From: Escherichia coli
GTDB lineage: Bacteria > Pseudomonadota > Gammaproteobacteria > Enterobacterales > Enterobacteriaceae
DNA: 64,000 nt
Assembly: GCF_030013595.1 (NCBI RefSeq)
Contig: NZ_CP122768.1
Strand: one strand, 5' to 3'
Position 1 is the stretch's first letter. Every line of letters begins with the position of its first letter. The position numbers and the translations under genes are program-made. Shown here one piece after another: positions 11,765 to 12,778 of the stretch. Under the pieces are notes generated by a model. That model was given only the letters and a program-made list of their open reading frames with translations. It made no database searches and was not told the DNA's origin.

Positions 11765-12778
11765 TTAAAATAGCATTTGAGTCAAATAGCCCATCAAGAT
11801 AGCCATACCTAAGATAACCGTCAGGAATGCAGCTATCATCGGCATTCTGAACATTGATTTAAGTAATATCACTTCCGTCAGGCTTGCTCCGGCACTGCCG
11901 ATGATTAATGCCATTAATGCTCCCAGCCCCATTCCTTTTGTCATCAGAACAGATGCCAGAGGGATAACCGCCTCTGCCCGGATATACAGCGGAATTCCGA
12001 CAACGGCGCTCAATGGGATGGCGAAGGGATTATCTGCCCCTGCATGAGCGGCAATCCACTCTGAGGGAATAAAGCCATAAATAAAAGAGCCTATTAATAC
12101 CCCTAACAAAAGATATGGCAGTACATCTTTAAACTGTTGCAACGCATCTTTGGTGGCTAGTTTTATGGGATTAATACTTACCACAGCTTTGGTACTGCAA
12201 CAGTTTACTACAGGTTTCTCAATGGCTTTAGCCGCTGGACTACAGCAACTCACTTTTATTGGCGTATATGTCGTCCCCGGCGAAGTTTTGGCTGGAGCAC
12301 AACAATTTGCTGATGAGCTTTTACTGGCAATGATATGACGTTCAAATCCCAGGGAATCCAGGATAATACTGGCAAGTACGGAGACGTCGGCGGCGATAAT
12401 CGCGTACAACAAGGTAACTTTCCAGCCAAAGGTCACCCACATTAACCCGACGATAATGGGATTAAGTAATGGGGAAACAAATAAAAAAGTGAGGGTCGGA
12501 CCGAACCCGGCTTTCGCTGACAACAATCCACGTAACATTGGGATTGTCGAGCAACTACAGAACGGGGTAACGGCTCCCAACAGAGCCGCCAGGAGATAGC
12601 CTCTCCCTTTTCTGGCCCCCATCATCTGCTGGATTTTATGGTCTGGCACCTTTTGTCTTATCAGGCTGACACCGGCACTAATCACTATAAACAGCAAAGA
12701 AAGCTCGACGGCGAGAAACACAAACATCTCTGCGGCATCTTGCAGCATCGCAAGCCAACTACTCATACGTAACCTCAT
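11765..12778 (-). CDS. ArsP-like (DUF318-type) permease with cysteine-rich cytoplasmic segment
   Basis: 337 aa polytopic membrane ORF with TPFCSCS motif and three CC pairs (NCCAP, VSCCSP, VNCCST) in a central loop. Confidence 0.6.
   Translation of the reverse strand: MRLRMSSWLAMLQDAAEMFVFLAVELSLLFIVISAGVSLIRQKVPDHKIQQMMGARKGRGYLLAALLGAVTPFCSCSTIPMLRGLLSAKAGFGPTLTFLFVSPLLNPIIVGLMWVTFGWKVTLLYAIIAADVSVLASIILDSLGFERHIIASKSSSANCCAPAKTSPGTTYTPIKVSCCSPAAKAIEKPVVNCCSTKAVVSINPIKLATKDALQQFKDVLPYLLLGVLIGSFIYGFIPSEWIAAHAGADNPFAIPLSAVVGIPLYIRAEAVIPLASVLMTKGMGLGALMALIIGSAGASLTEVILLKSMFRMPMIAAFLTVILGMAILMGYLTQMLF

Follow-up and report, generated by a model that had tools for sequence, protein, structure and literature searches.

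We analysed a window of 64,000 nucleotides from the chromosome of Escherichia coli (NCBI RefSeq assembly GCF_030013595.1, contig NZ_CP122768.1), in which a permease gene of the ArsP family and a regulator gene of the ArsR/SmtB family diverge from an intergenic region of 95 bp. Around the pair the genes are arranged as chuS-dctR-slp and one hypothetical gene, followed by permease and regulator and then by arsC-arsB-arsR-dinQ-gor, and public annotation describes the two members just as "permease" and "ArsR/SmtB family transcription factor". Their sequences make it very likely that they constitute a divergent two-gene arsR-arsP organoarsenical module of E. coli, orthologous to the arsR-arsP pair of Shewanella putrefaciens, the probable substrates being methylarsenite (MAs(III)) and reduced aromatic arsenicals of the roxarsone type. 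The first-pass annotation of this DNA had suggested that sensor and transporter share one ligand, which is plausible, the ligand being a trivalent organoarsenical. Permease residues are numbered here after the open reading frame (ORF) of 337 residues (11765..12778, minus strand), and positions derive from its translation. The protein itself probably starts at M5 (12766), because a GAGG Shine-Dalgarno sequence lies 6 nt upstream of this ATG and the RefSeq product has 333 residues. Coordinates are collected in Table 1.

The assignment of the permease rests on its family profile, its membrane motif, and its closest partner in Shewanella. It matches Pfam PF03773 (ArsP_1; exporter family TC 2.A.119) with an E-value of 4.8e-53 and 180.7 bits, against a cutoff of 32.3, over profile positions 3-293 of 294. 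All ArsPs have a C(S/T)C motif within the membrane, and a preceding 'tPF' is typical of cluster 2 (PMC4435449); the TPFCSCS of the window is invariant in our permease alignments A1 and A3, and by its sequence the protein is an ArsP that fits the "tPF-CSC" cluster 2. It shares 50% identity with a permease of 346 residues encoded divergently from the SpArsR ortholog of Shewanella profunda. The end of the arsP promoter fragment of S. putrefaciens is matched by the DNA directly upstream of this S. profunda gene, which is why we take that gene to be the arsP in question. A second PF03773 paralog, found in the classical ars cluster of S. profunda, shares 29% identity with the window permease. Two more specific assignments were rejected, since the scores fall far under the curated equivalog cutoffs: NCBIfam NF033936 (SO_0444 Cu/Zn efflux) gave 109.4 bits for a cutoff of 300, and NF040736 (SaoE efflux) gave 87.1 bits for a cutoff of 325.

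The regulator has the winged helix-turn-helix of the ArsR/SmtB family (PF12840, E 1.8e-14; PF01022, E 7.6e-7) and passes the cutoff of NCBIfam NF033788 (61.6 bits versus 55). The two regulators of the window are merely 29% identical, over 62 residues, and the classical arsenite site ELCVCDL is present in the neighbouring ArsR (14997-15350) and absent from the regulator of the pair (12874..13194); translation bears out what the first-pass annotation had said on this point. To compare it with SpArsR, we rebuilt that protein from the synthetic S. putrefaciens 200 arsR gene printed next to the native arsP promoter in the supplement of a biosensor paper, restoring the reading frame. The rebuilt protein has cysteines at 83, 101, and 102, in agreement with the published numbering, and differs at two positions from the S. 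profunda ORF. Over 92 ungapped residues the E. coli regulator is 58% identical to SpArsR, and C73, C91, and C92 align with C83, C101, and C102. The best match among solved structures is AfArsR of Acidithiobacillus ferrooxidans (PDB 6J05, E 3e-10), whose C95/C96 stand at the C-terminal end of the last helix and align residue for residue with C91/C92. The alignments thus agree with the earlier proposal that the vicinal cysteines of the regulator form its sensing site, although they do not end the protein, as had been claimed from EECC: 14 residues follow, CCVNSKTHGEGATKNK, with no further cysteine. AfArsR has a third ligand, C102, and binds As(III) with three coordinating thiols; in the E. coli regulator this position is not a cysteine. 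Conversely, C73, which the first-pass annotation did not mention, has no counterpart in AfArsR, where the residue is a tyrosine.

Conservation points the same way. Among 121 aligned sequences (the query and 120 database homologs), C73 is invariant and the CC pair is kept in 117-118; at least two of the three or four exceptions look frameshifted or chimeric, and some homologs have a third cysteine downstream of the pair. We looked for a lack of conservation of the cysteine pairs among orthologs and found the reverse, the linked permeases keeping their loop cysteines as well. SpArsR has been published as a methylarsenite-selective repressor in which C101/C102 form a two-coordinate MAs(III) site, and which is unresponsive to As(III) owing to the missing third cysteine (PMC13236881). 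Placed in E. coli with the arsP promoter, it responds to MAs(III) far above As(III) (PMC12124457). On the evidence of sequence, the regulator is of the SpArsR class. Its site is indeed non-canonical in that it differs from that of R773 ArsR, but it is the published SpArsR-class MAs(III) site (PMC13236881) and hence not new.

The DNA between the two genes links them to the same system. Two boxes with the pattern ATTTC-N10-GAAAT, related to each other, occupy 12790-12811 and 12827-12848. The 22 nt at 12825-12846 are identical to a segment of the arsP promoter fragment of S. putrefaciens 200, i.e., the biosensor promoter controlled by SpArsR; the match is unique in the window, none being expected by chance, and the S. 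putrefaciens fragment also has a second, similar box. Both boxes are conserved in the corresponding intergenic regions of a plasmid copy, Aeromonas, Citrobacter, and Shewanella, while the flanks diverge. A scan for the box pattern in one genome per species (100,044 species) returned 33 loci. Twenty-three of them are gammaproteobacterial and have a regulator with the C..CC pattern, in Aeromonas, Shewanella, Enterovibrio, Grimontia, Citrobacter, Escherichia whittamii, Buttiauxella, and Limnobaculum. A divergent PF03773 permease was seen at 21 of these 23, and at the other two (L021 and L026) the contig or the retrieved stretch of DNA ends before it. The remaining 10 loci have neither regulator nor permease: two are from Photorhabdus, and eight come from unrelated phyla and look like chance matches. 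From the divergent arsP neighbour and the 22-nt identity, we predict that the regulator controls arsP through the shared promoter. A scan for promoter hexamers did no better than chance (4 found, 3.4 expected).

Table 1. Features of the permease-regulator pair and its surroundings, in window positions.
Feature	Position	Strand	Remarks
ArsP-family permease gene	11765..12766	-	333 aa + stop; longer ORF to 12778 = 337 aa
TPFCSCS, C(S/T)C motif of ArsP	12548..12568	-	C74 12557-12559, C76 12551-12553
Hydrophilic central loop joining the two structural repeats, residues 143-216	12131..12352	-	predicted disordered core 12185-12316
Vicinal pair CC159/160 (NCCAPAK)	12299..12304	-	second Cys at least 90% conserved in alignment A1
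Vicinal pair CC178/179 (VSCCSPAAK)	12242..12247	-	kept in most Escherichia alleles; GC in P0035, lost in P0038
Vicinal pair CC193/194 (VNCCSTKA)	12197..12202	-	aligns with last CC of Salmonella, Aeromonas, and plasmid loops
Operator-like box 1, ATATTTCCAGAATAATCGAAAT	12790..12811		ATTTC-N10-GAAAT imperfect palindrome; direct + inverted repeat with box 2
Operator-like box 2, AGATATTTCTGGTATTATCGAAAT	12825..12848		related to box 1
SpArsR-type ArsR/SmtB repressor gene	12874..13194	+	106 aa
C73, equivalent of SpArsR Cys83	13090..13092	+	alignment to SpArsR
C91-C92, equivalent of SpArsR Cys101-Cys102 and AfArsR Cys95-Cys96 (putative ligand site)	13144..13149	+	
GC-rich hairpin, terminator-like	13193..13211		between convergent ends of regulator and arsC; consensus scan only
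arsR-arsB-arsC operon, inorganic arsenic, classical ELCVCDL ArsR	13215..15350	-	neighbour of the pair

The central loop of the permease is the part of the module that the published descriptions do not cover. The accessible literature on SpArsR-ArsP and on the ArsP family contains no mention of loop cysteines, so that, as far as this literature shows, the cysteine-rich loop is an undescribed feature of a described system. Translation supports the earlier report of three CC pairs in a soluble loop together with TPFCSCS, and the loop is predicted to be disordered (pLDDT, the predicted local distance difference test, below 50 over residues 155-198, which are 151-194 in the numbering of the 333-residue protein). 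The interval assigned to the pairs, 12210-12350, holds CC159/160 and CC178/179, and CC193/194 lies 8 nt outside it. The substrate-related site recognised for ArsP lies in the membrane, in the C(S/T)C motif (PMC4435449), and not in the loop, for which the first-pass annotation had suggested such a role. The permease has eight cysteines in all, C74 and C76 of the motif and the six of the loop; three or more CC pairs arise with a frequency of 3.1e-4 in 200,000 shuffles of its sequence.

Comparison with homologs suggests that this accumulation of thiols is no accident of one allele. In close homologs the membrane core is nearly invariant and the loop, of 65-110 residues, can hardly be aligned; among wider relatives its length ranges from 44 to 142 residues. 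All 90 close-homolog loops that could be parsed have 4-10 cysteines and one to four CC pairs, the rest of these proteins having 2-3 cysteines, those of the CSC motif. The loops are rich in A, S, T, P, and K, and the usual context of the pairs is (S/A/N)-CC-(S/P/T/G/A). Cysteine makes up 8.1% of the residues of the 82 distinct loops and 70% of these cysteines stand in CC pairs, 211 pairs being observed against 40.5 +/- 5.6 in shuffled loops (2000 shuffles, maximum 61). Every regulator-linked permease that we parsed, in other genera including Vibrio and Desulfovibrio, keeps loop cysteines. The forms range from a minimal CGTSC or CCGTSC in Enterovibrio, Grimontia, and some Shewanella, to five CC pairs in the partner permease of Desulfovibrio and six in Aeromonas simiae. 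In the latter, a 36-bp tandem repeat of 3.7 copies (L031 8517-8652), encoding CC-D-x-P-A-P-V-S-T-x-x, shows at the sequence level how the number of pairs can expand; the DNA that encodes the E. coli loop has no tandem repeat. A wider survey of 74 full-length representatives of PF03773 clusters at 50% identity gave at least two loop cysteines in 14 of the 15 representatives with core identity of 45% or more, 12 of which have a CC pair. Below 38% core identity, at least two loop cysteines were found in 16 of 39, and CC pairs in just three. The enrichment in CC, the retention of loop cysteines across regulator-linked partners, and the scarcity of CC in distant representatives lead us to conclude from sequence comparison that the loop cysteines are selected and mark the clade to which the E. 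coli permease belongs. Distant PF03773 loops have CxC/CGC runs instead, and one (P0381) is His-rich, HHCNGHEHNHEHCACGHE, so the same loop position seems to host metal-ligand residues across PF03773 generally. Some regulators have a third cysteine and some loops the form CCxxxC, and we searched for co-variation between the two, which gave no clean pattern.

The position of the loop relative to the membrane was approached with an AlphaFold model built with a 34-sequence alignment (mean pLDDT 83, pTM, the predicted template modelling score, 0.79). Each half of the model consists of a long helix, a short helix, two helix-break-helix elements, and a final long helix. CSC is at the break of the first such element in half 1 and PLYIRAE at its equivalent in half 2, and the breaks of the second element are SPLLNP and GSAGAS. 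If one broken helix per repeat is taken as a hairpin, the central loop falls on one side together with the first loop, which is basic, and the last, short one. The sum of lysines and arginines is then 13.0 on the side of the central loop (4.7 when this loop is left out) and 2.3 on the opposite side. We place the loop in the cytoplasm because of this hairpin topology and the positive-inside charge count; there, thiols would stay reduced.

These elements can be assembled into one mechanism. A dimer of the repressor would sit on the two ATTTC-N10-GAAAT boxes between the genes, as suggested by the conservation of the boxes and the identity with the SpArsR-controlled promoter. C91-C92 would hold MAs(III) two-coordinately, by homology to the published behaviour of SpArsR; the regulator has no third thiol, and therefore inorganic As(III) should be a poor inducer. 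Binding of MAs(III) would derepress both genes, and ArsP would expel the arsenical via the CSC pair, a role published for the family and placed by our model at the tip of a pair of half-helices in the membrane core. The disordered, cytoplasm-facing loop, with one to seven CC pairs (three here), would capture trivalent organoarsenicals, R-As(III). Each of its pairs would be chemically the two-thiol unit of the repressor, able to hand R-As(III) to CSC by thiol exchange. We regard the whole, an organoarsenical sensor-exporter module with the loop as thiol capture arm, as the best explanation and as somewhat probable. Taken by itself, the notion that the loop is a built-in arm passing R-As(III) to CSC is put forward tentatively, as a possibility that falls short of probable. 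More speculative, and rather doubtful as a joint claim, is an extension in which the loop is a tandemly expandable thiol antenna, an ArsD-like metallochaperone lodged in the transporter, in which every CC pair would take up one R-As(III) just as the partner repressor does and then deliver it to CSC. The number of CC pairs, from one to seven, would then be an evolvable dial of capture efficiency, and the loop position a swappable module of ligand selectivity (CC, CxC, or His-rich) across PF03773. Under this extension, the loops of poultry plasmids might accept the arsenical from ArsD/ArsA, and the number of CC pairs might be selected by organoarsenical feed additives in Enterobacteriaceae of poultry and swine.

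A number of observations weigh against this explanation. ArsPs linked to ars genes can have cysteine-free loops, namely the S. profunda ArsP2 paralog, the ArsP of Staphylococcus pSSAP1, and an Enterobacter plasmid ArsP, so that transport by an ArsP does not in itself require loop thiols. CC pairs change rapidly in both number and position, and the regulator-linked permeases of Enterovibrio and Shewanella colwelliana have C-x3-C only, with no CC pair. The side on which the loop lies was derived from a predicted structure together with the positive-inside rule; a published analysis gives the family a 4+4 topology (PMC7176098), under which the charge pattern becomes contradictory or ambiguous, and a Foldseek search of the permease model against the PDB returned no significant match. 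PF03773 also takes in Cu/Zn exporters (bioRxiv 2022.07.06.499078). Ligand binding, induction, and transport by the E. coli pair are themselves inferred from sequence.

The cysteine-free loops would suit a loop that binds the arsenical or a soft metal as a regulatory sensor, for allosteric gating, tuning, or buffering, instead of relaying it to CSC. The histidine-rich cytoplasmic loops of cation diffusion facilitator (CDF) transporters act as regulatory metal sensors in this manner, and a disordered segment that joins two structural repeats, with CxC/CGC runs or, once, histidines in PF03773 loops elsewhere, has the appropriate features. Nothing of any kind supports allostery, though, and one to seven CC pairs with tandem amplification fit dosage or avidity better than a defined regulatory site, so we find this alternative unlikely. 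If the 4+4 topology held, the first loop, which is strongly basic, would face the cytoplasm; the central loop would lie in the periplasm, and its cysteines would form structural disulphides or handle the exported compound outside the cytoplasm; linkers rich in A, S, T, and P are indeed common in exported proteins, but the charge count of the hairpin topology leads us to see a periplasmic loop as improbable. That the loop cysteines are a functionless by-product of low-complexity drift would fit the highly variable sequence and length of the loop and the gain and loss of single CC pairs. With cysteine at 8.1% of the loop, CC pairs five-fold over shuffles (none of the 2000 coming close), CC retained in loops from Escherichia to Desulfovibrio, and the other cysteines confined to the CSC motif, it is the least tenable of the alternatives and already disfavoured.

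Two further alternatives concern the ligand. The permease could be a broader exporter of soft metals and metalloids (As(III)/Sb(III), Cd, Hg, Cu(I), Zn) with a metallothionein-like loop, organoarsenicals not being its main substrate. Among NCBIfam models, it comes closest to the SO_0444 Cu/Zn exporter and SaoE, which share superfamily and CSC motif with it, short-loop relatives have CCxxxC, a three-thiol motif of As(III) type, some regulators have a third cysteine, and a plasmid copy stands with arsD-arsA and no ArsB or Acr3. Nonetheless, the model scores lie far under their cutoffs (109 versus 300 and 87 versus 325), the regulator has the two-cysteine pattern, and SpArsR, with the same cysteines including the equivalent of C73, is unresponsive to As(III) (PMC13236881). 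The operon of the plasmid regulator, moreover, starts with arsH, an organoarsenical gene. We rate this broader specificity as quite unlikely. It is very improbable, in our view, that the regulator senses reactive sulfur or redox state via C73 and C91/C92, like BigR, SqrR, and YgaV, with the pair exporting a sulfur compound or an electrophile and its arsenic linkage being incidental. Weak sequence matches to BigR and YgaV, and the invariance of a C73 that lies outside the reported MAs(III) site, would be explained by it; set against these are a score of 38.2 bits with NCBIfam NF040642 (BigR), for a cutoff of 155, the 58% identity and common operator with SpArsR, and the ars genes that adjoin the pair in three unrelated contexts.

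The explanation that we favour, an organoarsenical module with a thiol-rich loop, has clear relatives among known systems. SpArsR-ArsP of S. putrefaciens 200 (Sput200_1227/1226) is a divergent pair as here, with the 22-nt promoter box in common, and the SpArsR-linked permease of S. profunda also has a cysteine-rich loop, of two CC pairs and two single cysteines where the E. coli loop has three pairs. The E. coli pair differs in host and locus, standing beside arsRBC, and its regulator has the 14-residue tail after CC. The ArsP of Campylobacter jejuni, the first characterised efflux permease for MAs(III) and trivalent roxarsone, Rox(III), belongs to the same Pfam family and has the universal C(S/T)C motif, which publications on the family consider important for function, but is encoded in an arsP-arsR-arsC-acr3 operon and not in a divergent pair. 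As for the loop, flexible vicinal cysteines capture a soft metal or metalloid and pass it to a partner site in the metallochaperone ArsD, in the C-terminal CC of MerA, and in the CC pairs of MerT/MerF. Those relays are separate proteins or termini with defined sites, whereas here the thiols stand in an internal, disordered, copy-number-variable loop of a transporter. CDF and related transporters with His-rich cytoplasmic loops resemble it in placing a variable, ligand-rich loop between the transporter halves, but they use imidazoles and have a different fold, whereas the E. coli loop uses thiol pairs.

Arsenic genes accompany the pair in three independent settings: arsRBC in the window, arsRDABC in Citrobacter, and arsH-sigma-arsD-arsA on IncI/IncF plasmids. 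The chromosomal pair, beside arsRBC, occurs in 2222-2226 of 5426 complete E. coli genomes (~41%) and is absent from K-12-like and O157 strains. In O157, window positions 11501-13215 are replaced by 313 bp. Within the replacement in O157 ATCC 43889 (L043 3108-3162) we found a 55-bp relic of the 3' end of the regulator, 84% identical to window 13108-13162 and with mutated CC codons, as well as a weaker 23-bp match to the permease gene. Because the regulator relic remains in the replacement stretch, we conclude from the sequence that this locus originally had the module and that a deletion removed it in those lineages. Permeases that are 75-80% identical to that of the window are encoded by many conjugative plasmids, of the types IncI/IncF/IncHI, in E. 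coli, Salmonella, and Klebsiella; related copies occur on hundreds of conjugative plasmids, many of them from poultry. On the plasmids the cysteines of the regulator are unchanged, and its gene stands first in a series with arsH, a gene for a SigZ-like sigma factor, arsD, and arsA. On the E. coli IncI plasmid pHN257-2 (L001 3001-8047) the PF03773 permease is the sole membrane transporter, with no ArsB or Acr3, which opens the possibility, judging from gene content, that ArsA/ArsD work with it there. Poultry-associated plasmids such as pO83_CORR (L002) share the pair, and the arsH-arsA genes were not seen on them. A sigma-factor gene also lies 3' of the regulator in Vibrio splendidus (L044 4281-4895). 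In Citrobacter (L006/L007 1230-7092) the pair follows arsRDABC as cargo of a lambdoid prophage, flanked by replication genes (DnaT, lambda P) and by DinI/RusA/lysis genes. The pair stands alone in Aeromonas and Vibrio, and at a Desulfovibrio locus genes for an ArsR-like regulator, a methyltransferase, and an ArsP are clustered nearby.

We found no study of arsP in E. coli or Salmonella in the limited literature searched. Identification of the pair as a methylarsenite/roxarsone-type module would give a testable function to genes that some two in five complete genomes of E. coli contain, and would explain why they travel with arsH, arsD, and arsA; it also points to co-selection of resistance plasmids by the use of organoarsenicals. 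For MAs(III) biosensors, the regulator together with the 95-bp control region could provide a part native to E. coli. The loop raises the question of whether a transporter can have its own thiol relay, with the number of CC pairs setting its affinity.

Several features of the surrounding loci complete the description. The ORF of 371 residues between slp and the permease (10069-11184, minus strand), whose longer RefSeq version is a hypothetical protein, has no Pfam or NCBIfam match and occurs with or without the arsenic pair. An island of S. profunda (L020 1265-8398) contains arsJ-gapdh, a phosphatase, an ArsP paralog with a cysteine-free loop, two arsC-like genes, and a classical ELCVCEL ArsR, followed by the SpArsR ortholog divergent from the ArsP with the cysteine-rich loop, so that two types of ArsP and two types of regulator stand side by side. 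The ArsR of Staphylococcus saprophyticus pSSAP1 (L046 3063-3383) combines the classical LCVCDL site with a C-terminal DTCC pair, and the loop of its ArsP partner is short and cysteine-free. Alleles of the E. coli regulator diverge just after ...EECCVNSK (window 13150-13194): that of the window goes on with THGEGATKNK, and many other E. coli copies end in 'IA' and then run into sequence resembling repetitive extragenic palindromic (REP) elements, GCCTGATGCG. The 3' end of the gene looks like a recombination or deletion joint.

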